IMG/VR virus record: IMGVR_UViG_2706795801_000001
Span: 32,001-96,000 of that record
Direction: 5' to 3' (one strand)
Length of the DNA: 64,000 nt
Source: a virus
Lineage: Duplodnaviria > Caudoviricetes
Of this stretch, positions 5,818 through 60,800 are shown piece after piece. Made by a program: the position numbers and the translations under genes. The notes below the pieces were generated by a model. The model had not been told where the DNA came from. It saw nothing but the letters and a program-made list of their open reading frames with translations, and searched no databases. Position 1 is the first letter of the stretch. The number at the start of each line of letters is the position of its first letter.

Positions 5818-6552
5818 GAGAGTTTATGTTTATTAGTAGTGAATTGGTAAAGAATTGTACTATCACACTAAGAAAACTTGTTTGCTGATTTTATTGGTGA
5901 TGACACTAACAAATAAGTCATCACAGTAAATATGTGTTGCAAACACTTAGATGTAACTTAATATTTGGTGAGCCTGATTGAGCGATCTAGCGATTGATGT
6001 ATCACCACAATGTTTATAGTTCATCTTATATAACAAGGTTAATACTACAATACAAACAAGTTCAAAACTTACGAAGTAATTAGGAAGATTGAGTGGAACG
6101 ATAAGCTGAGTAAGTTTTGTATATCACCATAACATTATTGTTAATAAGAGTAAAAAGATTAAAACCTTTTAGATCTTTAGAAGATAATTATTTGGTTAGA
6201 AGCGTCAGAGCTTACTGCAGGATGTTAACCAGCATTTAATTTTGATATAGGTTTAATATTGTATTGGTAGAGGGTACTATGGTTAACATATTAAATAAGT
6301 GTAGACATTACATGTCTGGTACTATATAGTGTATTCCTATCGGAATGTAGGTTAATGTTAAGATTCACTAGACCAACCTATCTACACTTCGTTTGATACA
6401 TATGGTGTTCATCTAGTGTGGCTGAAAATAAAGCTTCCTATATTAGTTCTATAAGAGGAAAGATTTTTTACTTTGTGTGTAGTAGTTACCATGATGCAAA
6501 TTTATAAGTTATTGTTTATAAACATATTCAGCGCCTGAAGTAGAGGTTCAAA

Positions 6553-6609
6553 ATGACACCTTCTTAAATAAAGATTTACCTTGCATGGTGGTGTCATATG
6601 AGCTATACT
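6553..6609 (+). promoter_or_regulatory. Promoter with inverted-repeat operator
   Basis: TTGCAT(6581)-N17-TATACT(6604); ATGACACC 6553-6560 / GGTGTCAT 6590-6597 inverted repeat. Confidence 0.5.
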
Positions 6610-6640
6610 AAGGTATGTTTGTAATTAAATAAGGGTTCAT

Positions 6641-9378: not shown

Positions 9379-9633
9379 ATGAAACATCAACAATACATTG
9401 CATGTAAACGTGATGGTACTTTTGAATTTAGAAATGGTGAGCCTGTATTAAAACAAGAAGGTGATATTGCAATATTTAATTGTGAAGATAGTTTGGATTT
9501 ATCACAAATTAGTATGTTATCCGATTACTTTTATAACAACCCATTTAAAACGGGTACGTTTTCTAATCCAGCAGTTTCGTTAGAAGAATCTAGAATTCGG
9601 ACGAAAGATAAAATTAACAAAATAAAAGTTTGA
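9379..9633 (+). CDS. Hypothetical protein
   Basis: 84-aa ORF with AAGGGG RBS. Confidence 0.55.
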   Translation: MKHQQYIACKRDGTFEFRNGEPVLKQEGDIAIFNCEDSLDLSQISMLSDYFYNNPFKTGTFSNPAVSLEESRIRTKDKINKIKV

Positions 9634-9658
9634 CACACTTAGATGTTCAAGGTATTAT
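9630..9658 (+). promoter_or_regulatory. Sigma70 promoter of the RNA operon
   Basis: TTGACA-N17-TATTAT. Confidence 0.75.
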
Positions 9659-9671
9659 GTACTTATAGAAA

Positions 9672-9890
9672 CAAACGGGAGTTAAACGAAGATGTTCGTG
9701 GTTGCCGAGTCATGATTGCACTGGAGACACCTTTAACAATGTGATAATCGGGGCTAGGTTGCGGTGCGTTGGGCCAATCTATGGACGCCATCGTAAGCTG
9801 TTATTTCATTCGATAATAAGGATGGTGATAATATCTCGCAGCATGAAGCGATAGACATGCAAGCAAAGTTAACGCTATGCGCCAAATGCG
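9672..9890 (+). ncRNA. Candidate structured RNA, first element of the RNA operon
   Basis: GC-enriched, no RBS-led ORF, local helices such as CGCCATC/GATGGTG and GCATG/CATGC. Confidence 0.4.
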
Positions 9891-9908
9891 TTTAAATATT
9901 ATTTTTAT

Positions 9909-10032
9909 GCTAACTTTGGTTTAACGGTATAACGAAGCCGCTGAAAAAGATAAGATAACCCAAAGGCCACGGGTCGTATTCTTTAGTAGGTTAGAGGCTT
10001 AGGCGTCAAGTTCGACTCTTGGCAGGTTAGCA
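9909..10032 (+). ncRNA. tRNA-like RNA with enlarged anticodon arm
   Basis: Acceptor GCTAACTT/AGGTTAGC, D-like GTTTAACGGTATAAC, AAGCC/GGCTT stem enclosing ~56 nt, T arm TCAAG-TTCGACT-CTTGG. Confidence 0.65.
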
Positions 10033-10048
10033 TAAAAATAATATTTAA

Positions 10049-10124
10049 GCGTAATTAGCTCAGATGGTAGAGCGCTATCCTTCCAAGTTAGTGGTCATCG
10101 GTTCGAATCCGATATTACGCTCCA
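10049..10124 (+). tRNA. tRNA-Gly(UCC)
   Basis: Cloverleaf GCGTAAT/ATTACGC, anticodon loop CTTCCAA, TTCGAAT T-loop, encoded CCA. Confidence 0.95.
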
Positions 10125-10191
10125 AATGTCCAGTTGCAGGATTCTGGCACACGGTAATAACAACCGTATAATCAACACCTGCTTTAATTAA

Positions 10192-10268
10192 ATCTCGTTA
10201 GCTCAGTTGGATAGAGCAACAGCCTTCTAAGCTGTGGGTCGAAAGTTCGAATCTTTCACGGGATACCA
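10192..10268 (+). tRNA. tRNA-Arg(UCU)
   Basis: Cloverleaf ATCTCGT/ACGGGAT, ACAGC-CTTCTAA-GCTGT, encoded CCA. Confidence 0.95.
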
Positions 10269-10269
10269 A

Positions 10270-11960
10270 CTACTACACGTTAGTACTAGACAACACCATT
10301 GAGATATAGTATAGTTTGTGAGAAGGTTGTTTTGTCTTAGGGACCTATGATTGTAAGACCCAAGTGATACCTGCGTACAGGATGACAATCCGAATGACTG
10401 ACGTAAACAGTCTATATTTTAAAGTGTTTGGTAAGTTGATAGTGCGGCTCAATTTTAAATGGTATGAGGTGGCAGCATATCAGTCAAACACTTTAAAATG
10501 TAATTACATTGAAGTTATTATCATAGCTTCAATCAATTGTTACATTAAAAGGAGGATAAGCCACCTCCTTTCTGAGATACCATAAGAAATTGCGACTATG
10601 GTTAGAAGTTTAAATGGCAAACAATGTTGGTTGGCGCAGATTACGTCAGTTGCGGCAAAAGGCTTCGTTTACTGGAGTCGTTTAAAAGGTGGGCGAATAC
10701 AACACCTAACCAACAACACTTCTGATGTGTCTAAACTCAAGACGTATAGTAAATAAAAAGCTCTGCAAACCAGTAACGGAACTGGGAGAAGAAAGAAACA
10801 AAACGGTACGGAGTTATGTGGTTCTCCAGCAATACTATACACACTCCTCTGAAGAGTTTAATCTCAAGACAATACTCCTGCCCCGTCCTCGTAAGAGTTG
10901 GAGTTCTTTCCTGTAACAAGGTTGTAGCCAGAGTGCACATAAAAGTTATAATTCGGATTTAAGGTTGTTAGTCATCCTTAAGTAAATTATTGTAAAACTA
11001 ACAAATTCTACTGTATACTTGCCAATGGTTTAAGGTAGTCTTATAGCGGAAACGCACTTCATTGGCGCGATAATGTTTGTTAGTATTTATATACATCCCT
11101 CATTAACATGAGTTCTAGTTGTAATTACACAAGGCAGACTGCTAACGTCCCACATACAAAAGAGAGTACCACTCAAGTGTGGGTATTTGGTTGTTAGCCA
11201 GTCCGTGACTGGGTGATAAAACGACCGCTGGTATTGTAATTTAAGTTGTGGGTAACGTGATACCTTATGACCACACCCATGTTACAATGATGGTAATGTC
11301 GTTCATGAAAGTCATATTCCCTACCGAACCCAGATACTGGTTCAACACCTTGCCATTAATATATGGTTTCTGTGCAACGCAGACTAAGTAGGTTAATTTC
11401 GGGTCTGTTGTACAAGGTAACGCATATGCGTTAAATAGAAAGTTCCAATGGTTACGACCTTGGTAACGGCAAAGTCCTTTCCTATGCACCAATCAACGAT
11501 GTCATAGTCAGAGGCAAACACTAGGACATAACCCTGCCTAGTATAAAACGGTTTTGGGTGTAATAATATGTAAGCGACCACATGACTTTATCGTGGGGAC
11601 GGCTGGTATTCTGGTAAGATGATCCAAGACTCCATTATAATGGTAAACTTAAAGAACGCAAATGTGATGCTTTAGGCTAAAGCGTGGTGAGTGGGAGTAA
11701 CATCCAATTTAAGCAATGAGCCTTCAGGTAGCTCCTGAAATGTCCACGGATTCACATATATAGCTTGCACATGACCACTGATTCAAGCCAGTGCATAAGC
11801 AACTCCTGTCATTCGTGGCACTCGGTTGGGAGTATAATCTGGACTGGGAGACTAATAAAACCTTGTATTGTTCAAGGTCAGAAGTAAGACACTGTGAATG
11901 TCTAGGTAGACGTACTGACACATTGAGTCCCACCAAGTATTGGGTATCTACTCATACAGA
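10270..11960 (+). ncRNA. Large ornate non-coding RNA(s), GOLLD/ROOL-like candidate
   Basis: ~1.7 kb without an RBS-led ORF, after tRNAs and before a terminator; many long-range helices, GNRA-capped hairpins and pseudoknots. Confidence 0.6.
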
Positions 11961-11962
11961 TT

Positions 11963-11997
11963 AACACCCTTTCAGAAATGACTGGGTGTTTTCTTTT
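11963..11997 (+). terminator. Intrinsic terminator of the RNA operon
   Basis: AACACCC...GGGTGTT followed by T-tract. Confidence 0.75.
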
Positions 11998-12073
11998 ACC
12001 TGAAATTTGATCAGGGTTATCAGTACATGATAATATGATCTTATGAAACACACTATTAACAAGGAATAACAAA

Positions 12074-12265
12074 TTGCAATGTAGTTGCGGGAATACAATA
12101 CACAGACCGTCCTATACCTCTAAATCTAAATATGATTATATTTGTAATGAATGTAAAGGTTACGAAGTAGAAGACTATGATATACCTCCATCGGGGGAAG
12201 ATTTACTAAATATTAATTTAGAAAACTATAATAGATATGAATTAAGTGGTGATGGAAATGACTAA
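12074..12265 (+). CDS. Small Cys-containing protein
   Basis: CSCG...CNEC, AAGGA RBS, TTG start. Confidence 0.5.
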   Translation: MQCSCGNTIHRPSYTSKSKYDYICNECKGYEVEDYDIPPSGEDLLNINLENYNRYELSGDGND

Positions 12266-12611
12266 TAAGAATAAAGGTGGTAGACCTACATCAAGTCAAG
12301 TAGCTGAAAGAGAATGGGGTGCGCTGATTACAGACATGAAAGCTATGTCCCCTAAACTTATGAAGAAAGCTATGAAGAAGTACTCCGACATACTGGACTC
12401 TGAGAAGGCATCTGAATCTGCAACGCTACGAGCCTGCTCTGGAGCCTTCGATATAGTTAAATATTTGAATGACCTAGAAAAACGTGTGGCTGATATGGAT
12501 GCTGAAGAAGAAGCTACTGCAGAAGGTTTATTAGCTGCAGTGGTTGCTGAAGAAAAGAAGCCTATGATTAGTCTAGTGGCATTCGAACCACCAGAAAAGA
12601 AAGTGATGTAG
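12258..12611 (+). CDS. Possible terminase small subunit
   Basis: N-terminal GGRPTS, helical 117-aa protein upstream of terL; function is inferred. Confidence 0.45.
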   Translation: MTNKNKGGRPTSSQVAEREWGALITDMKAMSPKLMKKAMKKYSDILDSEKASESATLRACSGAFDIVKYLNDLEKRVADMDAEEEATAEGLLAAVVAEEKKPMISLVAFEPPEKKVM

Positions 12612-12658
12612 GTTATATTAAGTTTGACTGTATGTTCATGTTACTGTTATAATTACGT

Positions 12659-12825
12659 ATAGGTTGTGTGGCGGGGTTAAGTTCCTCCTCCTTACTTCAT
12701 CTGGCTACACTTCCTATATCCCTCCTAAAATGAGAGTAGTATATAACAGCTACCAGATATCTACAACCACACTTCCTCCTTCCCCCGCCTCATCAAATAC
12801 GTATGAGTGCGGGGTTTTTCTTTTT
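12659..12825 (+). ncRNA. Candidate sRNA with three anti-Shine-Dalgarno CCUCCU motifs
   Basis: Own promoter TTGACT(12624)/TGnTATAAT(12645-12653), 5' hairpin, terminator CCCCGC/GCGGGG + T-tract (12783-12825). Confidence 0.7.
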
Positions 12826-12844
12826 ATAAAATTTAAAATTAGTG

Positions 12845-12873
12845 TTGACACGATAGGTGTGAGGTAATATAGT
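12845..12873 (+). promoter_or_regulatory. Sigma70 promoter
   Basis: TTGACA-N17-TATAGT. Confidence 0.65.
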
Positions 12874-14951: not shown

Positions 14952-17541
14952 ATGAGTGAAAAAACTTTATTTTCTCCAGCATCCCCTAAACAGGCGTTGA
15001 TGTTAAAGAGGGCAAGTGATACACAGATAGTTGTGATCGGTGGCGCTGCAGGTTCTGGAAAGTCCCATATTCTTAACCACTTACCCCTTCTTGTAGTTGA
15101 CGACCCTAGGACAAACTGTATTATGTACCGTAGGACTAACCCTCAACTAGAAGGTGGTTTGTGGCCTAACGGACGTAAGATTTGGGCAGAAATGCCAGAT
15201 TGGGTACCAAAAGAATATAAACCCAAGAATATCAGGGAGAAGGTTAAAGAAGTTATCCTTTATAACGGAGCTAAGATTAAATACAATCAGGCAGAAAATA
15301 CCTCTAGAGCTAAGGATGACGCCCAAGGACAGGAATTTACCTTAGTTTGTATTGACGAAGCAACACAACATGACTGGGAATTTATAGAATACTTAATGTC
15401 TCGTTTACGGTCGCCATCTAAGCATTTCTCAAGAATGGTGATGAGTTGTAACCCCGACCCAGATCATAAACTAAGGCAAATTATTGACTGGTACTTGGAT
15501 GAAGAAGGATACCCCGATCCAGATAAGGATGGAGTACAGAGGTATTTTATTACCCTTGATGGGGAGTTCCAATGGGGGAATACCAAAGCTGAATTAGGGG
15601 AGAGGTTCGATATACCCGAAAAAGACTGGGAAAGTAAAATATTATCCTTCGCGTTTGTCAGCGGGACTATTTACGATAACCCCCCCATGATGGTTTTGAA
15701 TCCACAGTACCTAGCTTTTCTTGAAGGCTTAAATGATATTGATAAAGCTCAACTGTTACACGGTTATCTAGTAGCCGCTTCATTCGTAATGGAATGTCGA
15801 TAATTTTGTTAATTGCTGGGAAATCTTTACACCTATTAGTTGCTATAGAATAAAGTATATAATTTGGCTATAGGTTTAGATAATCAGCACCTAAGGTATT
15901 ACCACCCAGAATAAAGTAAGGAAAATTATGAAAAATCTTAAAAGTTTAAATGCATCAAATTACTGTTTAACCCCTTGTGGTAAACTCTATTCCTTAAGAG
16001 TCAATAGTTTCATGGATGGTTGGGTAGTTGGTGGTTACCTGAAATACTCAATAACCTTCGATGATAGTTCTCATAAAGAAATGTTTGCTCACAGACTTGT
16101 GGCAATTGCTTATCTGGGAGGAGAAGATTCAAATAGGATTTTTGTGAACCATATAGACGGTAACACACTAAATAACCATAAAGATAATCTAGAGTGGGTA
16201 ACTCCGTCTGAGAACAACTTTCACGCTTATGAGACAAACCTTTCTGTTGGAAAAAAACATCACGTAGAAGGTCTAGAGTATCTTAAAGGTATATACAATG
16301 AAAGTTGTGATTATAAGAACCTCACAGAAGAGGATGTGCATCAAATATGTAAGCTCCTTGTTGCAGGCTATAGGGACGTGGATATAAGTCGTATGACTAA
16401 CTTACCCAGAAGGACAATAAACCACATACGTCATAAGGATCTTACCTTGTTTCCAAAGATTGTAGAACAATACTCGTTCTCTTTCACAAAAGAAGATCGG
16501 ATGTCACCAGAACAGGTAGTTCAAATATGTGAGATGTTACAGTGTGGGTGGAAAGTTATGGAATTATCTAGACATTTAGGGTTAAACAGGAAAAAAGTAG
16601 GTAATATTAAGAGTAGGAAGACCTTCCTTGATATATCTAAAGCATATAATTGGTAATACAAAGATCAACGACTAACCCTGACGGGTGTACGCTGTAAGCT
16701 TAAAGCAGTGGAAATACAAAACACCTAAGTAAATTTATATTTAGGTGAAGATATAGTCTAGACTGTATGGTGACATATAGAAGTTCATAAGAGAACTGAG
16801 TGTGATTTGCGAACTCACTTGAATAATACGAACTGGAATGCACGTGCTAAGGGGGCCAACTATCTACTTTCTGGATGGTTTCAAGAGGTTGATAGGATAC
16901 CTTCTGGTGGTGTAATGGCAAGAGGTTATGATTTAGCTGCCACTGAAAGGAGTCAAGTCAATAAACACCCTGATGCCACTACATCATGTAAAATGTTGAA
17001 ACATGAGGGGTATTACTACATTATTGGTAATTATCACGAAAGTTTTTATGATGATGTTGAAGATGTCTACGGGAGGGTATGTAAAAGGGTTGGTGATAGA
17101 GATAATGTAATGTTGTCTCAGGCGAAACTAGATGGAGATGAATGTACCATTGTTCTTCCCGTAGATCCAGCTTCTGCTGGTAAACAGGTGTATTTAGAGA
17201 TGTCTAAGTTTTTTACTGGTAATGGGTTTAGAGTTAAGAAAGACCCAGTAGCTGGTAATAAATCAAAACTTACTAGGTTCTTACCTTTTGCCACTGCAGC
17301 AGAGAATGGTTTAGTTAAGATAGTAAGGAACACTTTTGACGACAAAACTTATTTATGGATAATGAAAGAATTGGAAGCCTTTAACGGGGAAAGGTCAACT
17401 TCTACAAAAAAAGATGATTTTCCAGACTGTATTTCTACAGTTTTCAACTACTTATGTACCGCAAGGTCTAACAAAGCCTTCACCTTACCTACAATTGATT
17501 CTCCTTCTCTCCTATCTCACCATAAGTCGAGAATTAAATAA
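14952..17541 (+). CDS. terL: Terminase large subunit, spliced (exons 14952-15764 and 16831-17541; ~507 aa)
   Basis: GGAAGSGKS, IDEATQ, SCNPD in exon 1; splice restores LLHG|NWNAR; GYDLAAT and KKDDFPD nuclease motifs in exon 2. Confidence 0.93.
15765..16830 (+). mobile_element. Group I intron (IA-type) in terL with HNH ORF in P6
   Basis: P1 CGGT/GCCG with U-G pair; AATTGCTGGGAA, AATCAGCA, CAACGACTA, AAGATATAGTC core; omega-G 16830; in-frame ligation. Confidence 0.92.
15928..16656 (+). CDS. Intron-encoded HNH homing endonuclease with C-terminal HTH repeats
   Basis: AHRLVA...VNHIDGNTLNNHKDNLEWVTPSEN. Confidence 0.92.
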   Translation: MKNLKSLNASNYCLTPCGKLYSLRVNSFMDGWVVGGYLKYSITFDDSSHKEMFAHRLVAIAYLGGEDSNRIFVNHIDGNTLNNHKDNLEWVTPSENNFHAYETNLSVGKKHHVEGLEYLKGIYNESCDYKNLTEEDVHQICKLLVAGYRDVDISRMTNLPRRTINHIRHKDLTLFPKIVEQYSFSFTKEDRMSPEQVVQICEMLQCGWKVMELSRHLGLNRKKVGNIKSRKTFLDISKAYNW

Positions 17542-57889: not shown

Positions 57890-60800
57890 ATGTCAGAAGA
57901 AATCACCAAGTATGTAGTGGAGGCAGAATTTGATTCCGCTAAAGCTACAAAAAAGTTGGATGAGTTTAATAAGAAATTAACGTCTTATTCCAAAGCTCAG
58001 AACAACTTTAGAAAGAATAAAATGGGTATGCAGAGGGTTCTAGATAATACCAGAAAGCATAAGATGCTAACGGATGTTGTTAAGACGCCTCAGATAGCTA
58101 AATTGAAACCTCCAACATCACCAGTTAATAGATTAGAAACACTATCAGGTAAAGAGAAGGTACTACCTAACCTATATAAGTATAGTGAGGCTTCTTTAAA
58201 ACGACAAAGTGAATACTTAGATAAGATTAAAGATAAGAAGGTGAAACTATCTTATGTTAATAATCTAAATAAACAAGAGCGAAAGGTCAAGTTAGATAAC
58301 AAAATCCCCTCAAGACAGAAGGTAGCTGTTAGTGTCAAAACTAAAACCCCTACCAAACGTTTAGAGTCTAAGACTTCCAAAGTAAAACCTGTACCAACCT
58401 TAGACAGAAAAATAAGGATACTTAGTAAGGTAAAAGATAGTAGGGTTAACGAGAAAGACCAACCCAAACCTAGTAGATTACAAACACTAAAATCTAAAGA
58501 GAAACTATACCCAAACCTATATAAGTATAGTGAAGATTCTCTTAAGCGGCAAAGTGAATACCTAGCTAAGTTAAAAGATAAGAAGGTTAAATTAGATTTC
58601 ATCGACAATCTTGACAAGGTAAAGAAGAGATTAAAATCCTTAAATAGACAAAAGACTAGGGAAGTGCCTGATAAGATTAGTAAAGTAGTGGGTTCAGATA
58701 AGAAACCTTTACAGAAAATCAATACTATCAAGGAAAAGGTGGTCAAAGTAGGTAAATCCCCTAAACAGCCTATGCTAAATGCCCATCACAAGGAACGTGA
58801 GAAGTATTTAAATAAAGAGTACAAGAACAAGGTTAACAGGGAAAGGAGTTTAAAGTCTGCACACATCTTGGCTATCAAAGAAAACATTAAGTTTGATAGG
58901 AAAGCAGCAGAAGCTAAACGAAGCGAAGCAAGTAAACCAGATGGTATGGATACTCATCTTAAACAACGTGAGAAGTATTTAGATAAACAATACAAGAAAC
59001 AGTTAAGTCGAACTAAAGAGTTAAAAGCGGCACATGTAGCTGCTATTAAACAGAATATTAAGTTTGACAGACAACGGAAGATGGCTGCTGCTAAGGTTAA
59101 ACAACCTGCTATTATGAAACCTGCTGATGCTCATGTGAAAGCTAGAGAGGCTAGTATAGTTCAAGCTAATAGAAAGGAAACTCGTAGGAAGTCTAATCTA
59201 GGAGTCGCCAAAACATCATTTGATAGGTCTGACTTAAACCTAACTCAATATACTGACGCAAGACAACTTGCAGCACAAGCAGCACTGAGGGAGTCTATAG
59301 CGCAAGCTAAGACTGCTGATGAAGTCAAGATGATAGTTGCAACAGAACATAAACGCCTAAGAGTAATGAAGCAGAATGAGCGCTCTATGGGTAAGCAGAA
59401 CTACCTGATGCAACGTATGAACGCATCCAGTAAACAGTTTACAAGTAACATGTTCTCTGCATTCGCCATAGCTGGTGCTGGTGCTGGTATTACTAGAATA
59501 GGACAAGACTTCGAAGCAGTAAATAACACCATGTTGGCAGTAAGTACTAATACGCAAGAAGCAGGATCTAACTTTAAGTTTGTTAGAGATGAAGCTTATA
59601 GGTTAGGACTAGGACTTGCAAACAGTGGTAAGAACTTTGCTAAGATGTTATCTGCCAGAGGTAATATGAGCCTAGAGGATACAAAGAAAGCCTTCACAGG
59701 TATTTCAGAAATGTCTACATTGTTGGGGTTAAGTGCAGAAGAAAGTACAAGAGCTAAAGTTTGTGGCTCCTTTTAATAGTAATGTTAAATGTAAAATCTT
59801 TTTAATTGCTGGGACACCCACTTTATGGTGGACAATCAGCAGGGACGTTAACGTAAGTTAACACCTTCAGAGACTAACCCGTTAGGGTGTAGATTCTACT
59901 TAGAATCGAAAATAAGAAATCCTTTTAGGATTAAGATATAGTCCACAGACAAACGCTTTACAACAAATAAATCATTGTTTGGCTTCATAGAAATGTGATG
60001 AATAATTAAATTTATGAATTCGGTGGATCTCCTAAATGGAAGTAGGACAATACCGAGCGAAGCCTCGAAAGAGGAACGTGTAAAGACTAACTCGTAAGAG
60101 TGTAGGGGACGATACTATATCCTCGAAGCGTAAATAACCTGAACATTAAGTTGAAGGTTAAGATATAGTCTGAACTTCTATAGTAATATAGAGCGTATAA
60201 TACGGAGTAAGTCATTGATTTACTTAACAATTTTGGATGAGTAAAGGAGTTGTATCGGCTAAATCCTTGGCCTTTTAACTAGCGATAGTTATCAATAATT
60301 CATTTAATTGCTGGAACCTCTCATATGAGACAATCAGCAGGGAAGACTACTCGTAGTAACCTCCAACGACCAACCGTTATCGGTGTAGATTCTAAGTAGA
60401 GTCGAAACAGTGAAAACCTCTAAGGAGGTTATGATATGGTCTAGCCCTATAGTGATATAGGTTATATCTAAAGACTTTGATATAGTGACTCTTAACGTAA
60501 GTCATTGATTTAACTAGAGGAATTAAAGCTTCAAATGGGTAAACTTTGCCCAGTATAAAATTATTTAATTGCGAGAAGCCTTAATGCTTGTGACAGATGA
60601 TGTATTTATGGTATCATTGTTGCAGGTGAGATGGTAATTCGCAGGGAAGACCCACCACCTCAAAAGAGGAGTGTGTTGATATTATGAAAGCTATAGAAGA
60701 ATTTCCAAATTACTTTATTGATGAAAGCGGTAATGTGTTTAATAGTAGAGGGGTTCCAATTAAATCCCAATTAAATATAGATGGTTATAGGGTAGTAAAC

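Follow-up and report, generated by a model that had tools for sequence, protein, structure and literature searches.

The window analysed here, a stretch of 64,000 nucleotides (nt), covers bases 32001-96000 of a virus record that is 133,824 bp long and has terminal repeats, and its positions 10950-11960 hold a region which a preliminary description had proposed to encode a single giant, ornate non-coding RNA of the GOLLD or ROOL kind, located downstream of tRNA genes. Among public records the phage is closest to Shewanella sp. phage 1/40, a Baltic Sea ice myovirus, with 96-98% identity across the aligned parts; comparison of the CCA-adding enzyme points to a distant kinship with myoviruses of Vibrio, Alishewanella and Rheinheimera. 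Judged by its homologues in related and unrelated phages, the region is a patchwork of separately inherited conserved non-coding cassettes, not one giant RNA.

The region is predicted to make up the distal half of an operon without protein genes, about 2.3 kb long, which would be transcribed on the + strand (the strand of all features given below unless stated otherwise) from a sigma-70-type promoter at 9630-9658 to an intrinsic terminator at 11964-11997. The head promoter (TTGACA, 17 nt, TATTAT) scored 11 of 12 in the promoter scan, and a box of the form TTGACA-17-TA(A/T)TAT is also kept at the operon head in three related lineages from metagenomes, L008, L007 and L010, that is in four lineages including the window. 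Two tRNA genes, tRNA-Gly(UCC) at 10049-10124 and tRNA-Arg(UCU) at 10192-10268, were recovered both by ARAGORN and by Rfam; they lie 700-900 nt upstream of 10950-11960, which follows them, as had been described, and shares their promoter-to-terminator unit. Among the three relatives the tRNA set varies (Arg+Gly, Met, or Met+Arg), and the inter-tRNA spacer of the window, 10122-10186, is 97% identical to L008. The distal end is formed by a common tail (11940-11997, TTGGGTATCTACTCATACAG...) shared with 1/40 and L010. It contains the terminator that had been placed at the end of the region, ACACCC (11964-11969) pairing with GGGTGT (11984-11989) ahead of TTTCTTTT (11990-11997); at the same tail position, L008 and L007 have other GC hairpins followed by T-runs, which amounts to three different hairpin sequences overall. 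The conserved head promoter, the tRNAs, the non-coding array and the terminator at a fixed place are good indirect evidence for a single transcription unit on the + strand. The proteins neighbouring the gap belong to no known family.

Three further features were noted in the proximal half of the operon. At 9911-10031 there is a tRNA-like gene with an insert of ~47 nt, which was picked up by ARAGORN under relaxed settings only and whose equivalent in 1/40 is annotated as a pseudo-tRNA. Immediately downstream of tRNA-Arg, 10275-10429 may form a mini-unit of its own, in which a promoter-like box (10287-10315) precedes a terminator-like hairpin (10396-10412) with a T-rich tail; conservation in L010 and L008 is 95-98% at its two ends, 10275-10317 and 10391-10429, and its middle is not conserved. 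Finally, a hairpin at 10547-10572 pairs AAAGGAGG with CCTCCTTT, a Shine-Dalgarno sequence with an anti-Shine-Dalgarno-like sequence, and the block that holds it (10538-10627) has 97% identity in L008 and 89% in L007.

The preliminary description had stated that 10950-11960 holds no open reading frame (ORF) led by a ribosome-binding site, and the analysis confirmed that the region contains no credible gene. The longest stop-to-stop frame measures 75 amino acids (aa), the sole ORF led by a Shine-Dalgarno sequence is a 33-aa frame starting with TTG, and the stop-to-stop frames of the region gave no match to Pfam or PHROGs. On a larger scale, ORFs of at least 80 aa are missing from both strands over 9634-12245, a distance not equalled anywhere else in the 133.8-kb genome, and a phase-specific Markov model trained on the long ORFs of the genome returned no coding signal between ~9540 and 12060, with positive values for the flanking genes. 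A lone PHROG match in the wider gap was set aside, the family itself having been built from an annotated 52-aa ORF. That very small protein genes have gone unrecognised here is hardly credible, even though the public record of 1/40 annotates ORFs of 52-56 aa in the wider gap and a 48-aa open frame (11245-11391) overlaps the cassette called A2 below. Against such genes stand the missing Markov signal, the failure to find a usable ribosome-binding site, indels of 1 and 29 nt that disrupt the frames in L008 and L010, substitutions without three-base periodicity (judged by eye), and the loss of the annotated 52-aa ORF in L008.

The search for known large RNAs was made with Rfam 15. No match to GOLLD, ROOL, raiA or transfer-messenger RNA (tmRNA) was obtained in the whole window at the gathering score or in 9500-12500 at E<=10 with relaxed filters; in the arrays of the relatives the same models found tRNAs only, no GOLLD and no ROOL, and ARAGORN gave two tRNAs and zero tmRNA. 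The helices on which the giant-RNA proposal rested are present in the sequence within 1-2 nt of their reported places, namely ACTAACAAA (10997-11005) with TTTGTTAGT (11076-11084), GCCAATG (11021-11027) with CATTGGC (11060-11066), and a closing helix of GTGGGGAC (11593-11600) with GTCCCAC (11927-11933). In the folding tests they did not rise above chance. The minimum free energy (MFE) of 10965-11960 (996 nt, + strand) corresponds to z = -0.93, with 3 of 20 dinucleotide shuffles folding equally well or better, and to z = -0.22 on the - strand, as compared with z = -2.76 for a control coding stretch of the same length. None of the sliding 200-nt windows in the region fell under z = -2.0; the sole strong signal (-4.35) lies upstream, at 10300-10600.

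The sister phage 1/40 provides a natural deletion variant of the locus. Its flanks, corresponding to 10391-11003 and 11937-12850, are ~98% identical to the window, and between them 11004-11436 (~430 nt) and ~11560-11939 (~380 nt) are missing, with 11437-11559 present at just 84% identity. The second absent segment is bracketed by the repeat TTGGGT at 11554-11559 and 11940-11945. With both gaps, a viable cultured phage thus does without ~80% of the proposed RNA. The same phage carries an insert of its own, 510 nt long (L001:3161-3672), after window position 10429, with ~80% identity to part of the L008 array.

Further relatives were retrieved from IMG/VR and the JGI metagenomes with the exact 21-mer 11521-11541, which lies in cassette B2. 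They represent three lineages, L008 (identical with L011), L007 (identical with L009, L012 and L013) and L010, the most diverged. Homology of their arrays to the window is confined to blocks of 45-170 nt, each present or absent independently of the others. Identity within the blocks amounts to 87-100% (~72% for A2 in L010), compared with 67-83% for the alignable coding DNA of the same contigs, and blocks that are more conserved than genes make a role at the RNA level plausible. The order of the blocks is not fixed, A2 preceding A1 in L008 and L010, the reverse of the order in the window. Some blocks also occur in unrelated phages: the contig L014, whose portal gene starts like that of the Shewanella siphophage KASIA, holds B1, the linker hairpin described below, X and A1a, in that order, in an 870-nt gap upstream of the portal gene, and L015 has the order tRNA-Arg, linker, X, A1a. 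The first positions of the L014 contig (L014:2-36) are 35 nt of non-coding gap with 97% identity to unannotated DNA of Klebsiella phage KP2025; the same query retrieved eleven records of Salmonella, Escherichia, Pectobacterium and other phages at 90% or more, their alignment positions being unchecked, and a similar stretch occurs in L015.

BLAST of 10270-12000 against 50,697 phage records matched 1/40 and KASIA only, and no homologous array was found in Vibrio phage 496E54-1, which belongs to the nearest cultured relatives by protein. No record contains a second copy of a cassette. The exact words of A1a and B2 were absent from 185,579 species genomes, a comparison that registers near-identical copies only, and a bacterial or prophage origin was discarded on this basis.

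Ordered along the window, the tail of the tRNA operon can be read as a string of cassettes, X, A1, A0, A2, B1, B2, C1 and Cend, of ~45-170 nt each. A1 (11004-11137) is composed of A1a (11004-11066), which contains the GCCAATG/CATTGGC hairpin, and A1b (11067-11137); it is 89% identical in L008, is missing from 1/40 and L007, and shows no covariation. A1a alone is found at 89-94% identity in L010 (the first 62 nt of A1), L014 and L015. A0 (11143-11240), with the hairpins GCTAAC/GTTAGC, CCCACA/TGTGGG and CCAGTC-CGT-GACTGG, has its counterpart in L010 only; the alifold score of the two sequences is z = -2.2, with one compensatory pair and three broken ones (counted by eye). A2 (11242-11410) features a multi-hairpin core of ~77 nt (11322-11398) closed by CCGAA/TTCGG, with 87% identity in L008, ~72% in L010, and an alifold z of -1.6. 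Its hairpins at 11326-11345 and 11366-11380 stay paired through a two-sided flip and wobble changes, a retention of pairing that is suggestive of selection at the RNA level, though not conclusive.

B1 (11431-11515) is shared by 1/40, L008, L010 and the unrelated contig L014. It is followed by B2 (11516-11559), a near-invariant block of 44 nt consisting of the hairpin ACUAGG-ACAUAACCCUG-CCUAGU and then AUAAAACGGUUUUGGGU; B2 is the same in 1/40 and L007, differs by one base in L008, and is longer by one base at the 5' edge in L010. C1 (11560-11662) is 90% identical in L010, is represented in L008 and L007 by its two ends only, and has no counterpart in 1/40. The subsequent segment, 11663-11856, gave no BLAST match in any locus or collection. 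Cend (11857-11933) is 87-88% identical in L008 and L007, is represented by its 3' half in L010, and has no counterpart in 1/40.

Upstream of the array, a 28-nt linker hairpin occurs in two copies, the first at 10715-10742 (ACAC-TTCTGAT-GTGT, then CTAAACTCAAGA) and the second at 10842-10869, in which both sides of the stem are changed and the pair is kept (ACTC/GAGT). The consensus is ACNC-YTCTGAW-GNGT, then NTAAAYCTCAAGA. One copy each is present in L007, L008, L010, L014 and L015, with a different cassette downstream in each lineage.

Set against these blocks, the helices of the proposed giant RNA come apart. For the outer helix ACTAACAAA/TTTGTTAGT, the 5' strand lies outside A1 and gives way to unrelated sequence in L008, L010, L014 and L015, the 3' strand is absent in 1/40, and just 53% of the homologue cells pair. 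GCCAATG/CATTGGC is 91% paired by invariance of sequence, and the changes that do occur break pairs; the cap GCG-GAAA-CGC is gone in three of five lineages. In L010, GCTAAC/GTTAGC has lost two pairs, and in CCCACA/TGTGGG one pair is compensatory and one is broken (both by eye). In the closing helix GTGGGGAC/GTCCCAC, the 5' strand belongs to the part of C1 that is missing from L008 and L007, where the 3' strand is kept. Covariation among the homologues, named in the preliminary description as a check, stays at background level across 10950-11960. The reordering of cassettes, their independent presence and absence, their unrelated carriers and the lack of conserved long-range pairing all argue against one large fold, and with the long-range helices unconserved, the set and order of blocks variable and ~80% of the region dispensable in 1/40, a single ornate RNA of ~1 kb found no support.

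A modified version of that proposal would keep one large RNA of a new class, with a conserved core (linker hairpin, B1, B2, Cend and tail) and a variable periphery, that works in the manner of GOLLD or ROOL. The core blocks do keep the same relative order across all five myovirus lineages, GOLLD too has a variable 5' region and lies in the vicinity of tRNAs (bioRxiv 10.1101/2024.12.08.627333), and a transcript from the promoter-like box at 10925-10952 to the terminator at 11964-11997 would be ~1 kb long. This version is nevertheless improbable. Besides the absence of an Rfam match and the fold at z = -0.93, the strands of the proposed closing helix sit in different blocks, each of which is found without the other; the order of A1 and A2 is swapped in relatives; the unrelated phages hold B1, X and A1a in another order and without B2, A0, A2, C1 and Cend; and in the viable phage 1/40 just ~215 nt separate that promoter-like box from the terminator.

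A different picture emerged for the element X (10870-10956), which forms the 5' edge of the region and has homologues in KASIA, L014, L015 and the Barba phages of Rheinheimera. Its outer helix P1, ACUCC (10874-10878) pairing with GGAGU (10900-10904), is the same in KASIA, reads AACCC/GGGUU in L014 and L015, and AAUCC/GGAUU in the Barba phages. P1 encloses P1a, a GUAA-capped hairpin at 10888-10897; the P1a stems differ among the homologues, GNRA caps (GUAA, GAAA, GUGA) are present in four lineages, and L014 has a longer insert. The second helix, P2, is CCU-GUAACA-AGG (10910-10921), with the general form (N)CCU-GUAAYA-AGG(N), in which the closing pair is U.U, A-U or C-G. The conserved tail, AAAAGUUAUAAUUC, contains the promoter-like box at 10925-10952. 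In the alignment of six sequences 97.3% of the cells are paired, with four compensatory pairs and a covariation score matched by only 1 of 500 shuffles, and controls in which the structure was slid along the alignment gave zero compensatory pairs. X had no match in Rfam, in the window at E<=10 or in the arrays of the relatives. On this covariation, X is an uncatalogued structured RNA motif. In KASIA it lies between the terminase and portal genes, and in 115 records of Rheinheimera Barba phages it sits ahead of the terminase gene, in a gap that carries no annotation; the individual locations are L004:2500-2590, L014:310-432, L015:2740-2828 (- strand) and, for a Barba phage, L016:1505-1593.

For the array as a whole, it is probable, on the pattern of conservation described above, that the cassettes work as RNAs, either released from the tRNA precursor or acting within it, through conserved sequence and small local hairpins. 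Several results weigh against this. When the MFE structure predicted locally for the window sequence was compared with the homologues, 62 cells in predicted pairs had changed, of which one was compensatory, 28 were kept by a one-sided change and 33 were broken. Substitution rates are alike in predicted stems and loops, and the RNAalifold column-shuffle z of the blocks ranges from -2.2 (A0) to +0.7, with little difference between the strands. Homologues were found in only five lineages of myoviruses and four further groups of phages, which gives low power. Several blocks terminate at promoter-like -10 boxes (10144-10172, 10287-10315 and 10925-10952), such that some of the conservation may act at the level of DNA, and the high identity of the blocks could come in part from recent recombination instead of selection. 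As the very high conservation of the blocks itself leaves low power to detect covariation, structure within them is to be regarded as unsupported by these tests and nothing further. An asymmetry between G.U and A.C substitutions (28 versus 5) was discarded as evidence, because the pairs had been ascertained on the + strand of the reference.

Two other readings draw on the same observations. According to the first, the conserved blocks act as DNA, as tandem promoters, as sites for regulators or as linkers for recombination in a hyperplastic region, in the way of the PeSL (promoter-stem-loop) cassettes of T4-type phages, and any RNA is incidental. The blocks 10122-10186, 10275-10317 and 10871-10954 each finish right past a promoter-like -10 box, the linker motif is located at cassette junctions, substitutions are evenly spread over predicted stems and loops, and PeSLs are known to drive modular shuffling in T4-type phages (PMC2839356, PMC4122927). 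We regard this as rather unlikely, because RNA helices and GNRA loops are maintained by the compensatory changes in X, the box associated with X has an unconserved -35 region in L014 and L015, the motifs occur in one or two copies per genome, undispersed unlike PeSLs, and the cassettes between the linkers contain no ORFs.

According to the second, the region is largely functionless spacer, made of the remains of decayed tRNA or other genes and patched by recombination, its conservation being due to recent exchange. Partial dispensability in 1/40, the lack of any homologue for 11663-11856, the mosaicism on a sub-gene scale that is also seen in the flanking ORFs, and the scarcity of covariation would all fit such an origin. 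However, tRNA-like matches occur at the background rate only: ARAGORN at a threshold of 75% found four matches in the stretch, close to the genome background of ~1.5 per kb, by which a decayed tRNA array was rejected, and the Rfam tRNA model at E<=10 gave no extra tRNA in 10270-12000. Spacer is also hard to reconcile with blocks that surpass coding DNA in conservation in every lineage, with B2 being near-invariant over five lineages whose genes differ by 20-30%, and with the persistence of B1, A1a and X in unrelated phages, and it was judged unlikely as an explanation of the region. Two other candidates were rejected. A replication origin was discounted in view of the lack of a DnaA-box cluster, tandem repeats, iterons and a switch in GC skew; repeats of, or antisense to, the phage's own genes were dismissed after BLAST of 10270-12000 against the whole genome gave nothing significant.

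Each cassette is its own unit of inheritance, which can be lost (A0, A1, A2, C1 and Cend in the case of 1/40), reordered (A2 before A1) and passed between phages that are not related, as the presence of B1, A1a and X in phages of the KASIA-like, L015 and Barba types shows. Taking the cassettes as RNAs, the following sequence of events can be envisaged. The + strand would be transcribed together with the tRNAs as a single precursor. The cleavage that releases the tRNAs, and probably also cleavage at the linker hairpin, would then free small, locally folded RNAs or leave RNA signals. The freed RNAs may act by binding protein or by base pairing, through their conserved sequence and not through a large tertiary fold.

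A tentative extension, which for now is more doubtful than convincing, regards the cassettes (X, A1a, B1, B2 and others) as a pool of small trans-acting phage RNAs that are made from tRNA operons and swapped among unrelated phages of Baltic Sea gammaproteobacteria, namely Shewanella 1/4-type myoviruses, KASIA-type siphoviruses and the Rheinheimera Barba phages. Through their conserved sequence they might bear on one host target common to these phages, serving for example as decoys or guides in a conflict at the RNA level of which the phage's own tRNA-repair genes are a hint. If this were true, X and the near-invariant 44-nt B2 would be new RNA classes.

A number of observations were made elsewhere in the genome. 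The group I intron model matched three times in tandem (58-78 bits) over ~720 nt at 59745-60462, and several such matches occur near the terminase genes of L007, L008 and the Barba phage L016. The terminase region of the window (14952-17541) is divided into three ORFs of 283, 242 and 244 aa; in 1/40 only a 108-aa piece is annotated as 'terminase large subunit' there, and the terL of KASIA is assembled from three exons and contains an HNH gene. In addition, an inverted pair of similar segments is located at 6281-6432 and at genome positions 115664-115895 (83664-83895 in window coordinates, outside the window). The pair sits in the ORF-free gaps 5818-6640 and 83410-84086 and is 76-85% conserved in L009, L010 and L011.

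The practical outcome is, in the first place, that the short list of candidate giant ornate RNAs loses a false entry. The case teaches that an ORF-free kilobase in which many helices can be drawn by hand may fold at the level of its shuffles, and that relatives can dissolve it into pieces. Conversely, X is gained as an uncatalogued covarying motif with more than 100 cultured carriers. The operon is free of proteins, well delimited, and available in a culturable pair, phage 1/4 on Shewanella glacialimarina; a natural deletion variant exists in 1/40, and the cassettes outdo the phage genes in conservation and span unrelated phages. Taken together, this renders the role of the extra RNAs in phage tRNA clusters directly testable.

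The locus is, in sum, a variant of a known and poorly understood kind, and the comparison with established systems helps to place it. GOLLD (RF01998) and ROOL (RF03087) are likewise phage-borne and non-coding, lie beside tRNA genes and measure hundreds of nt, a likeness that extends to the setting only. Many members of GOLLD exceed 800 nt, and a homo-oligomeric nanocage is a mark of that family. Unlike these families, the region has no covariance-model match, no conserved large architecture, no long-range covariation and no stability above that of shuffled sequence, and its content varies from ~215 nt to ~1 kb between sister phages. GOLLD is one large covarying unit; here, the homologues hold separate blocks of 45-170 nt, and compensatory changes amount to 1/62. 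The PeSLs of T4-type phages (PMC2839356, PMC4122927) share with the linker that they are short, conserved non-coding motifs at the junctions of swapped, inserted or deleted segments. They are dispersed, however, occur in many copies and flank protein-coding ORFs, in contrast to the linker, which is present in two copies (one in relatives), flanks ORF-free cassettes and has no clear promoter consensus. Closest in kind, by analogy of setting, appear to be the RNAs of the T4 tRNA region, from which come RNAC and RNAD, two small RNAs with no assigned role (PMC3014915). BLAST of 10270-12000 against the 50,697 phage records revealed no sequence similarity to them, and the putative RNA cassettes of the present locus are far more numerous, total ~1.7 kb and are shuffled between lineages. 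What unites the two systems is that the RNAs are non-coding and encoded together with phage tRNA genes in one transcription unit, which for the locus described here would be the predicted operon from 9630 to 11997.

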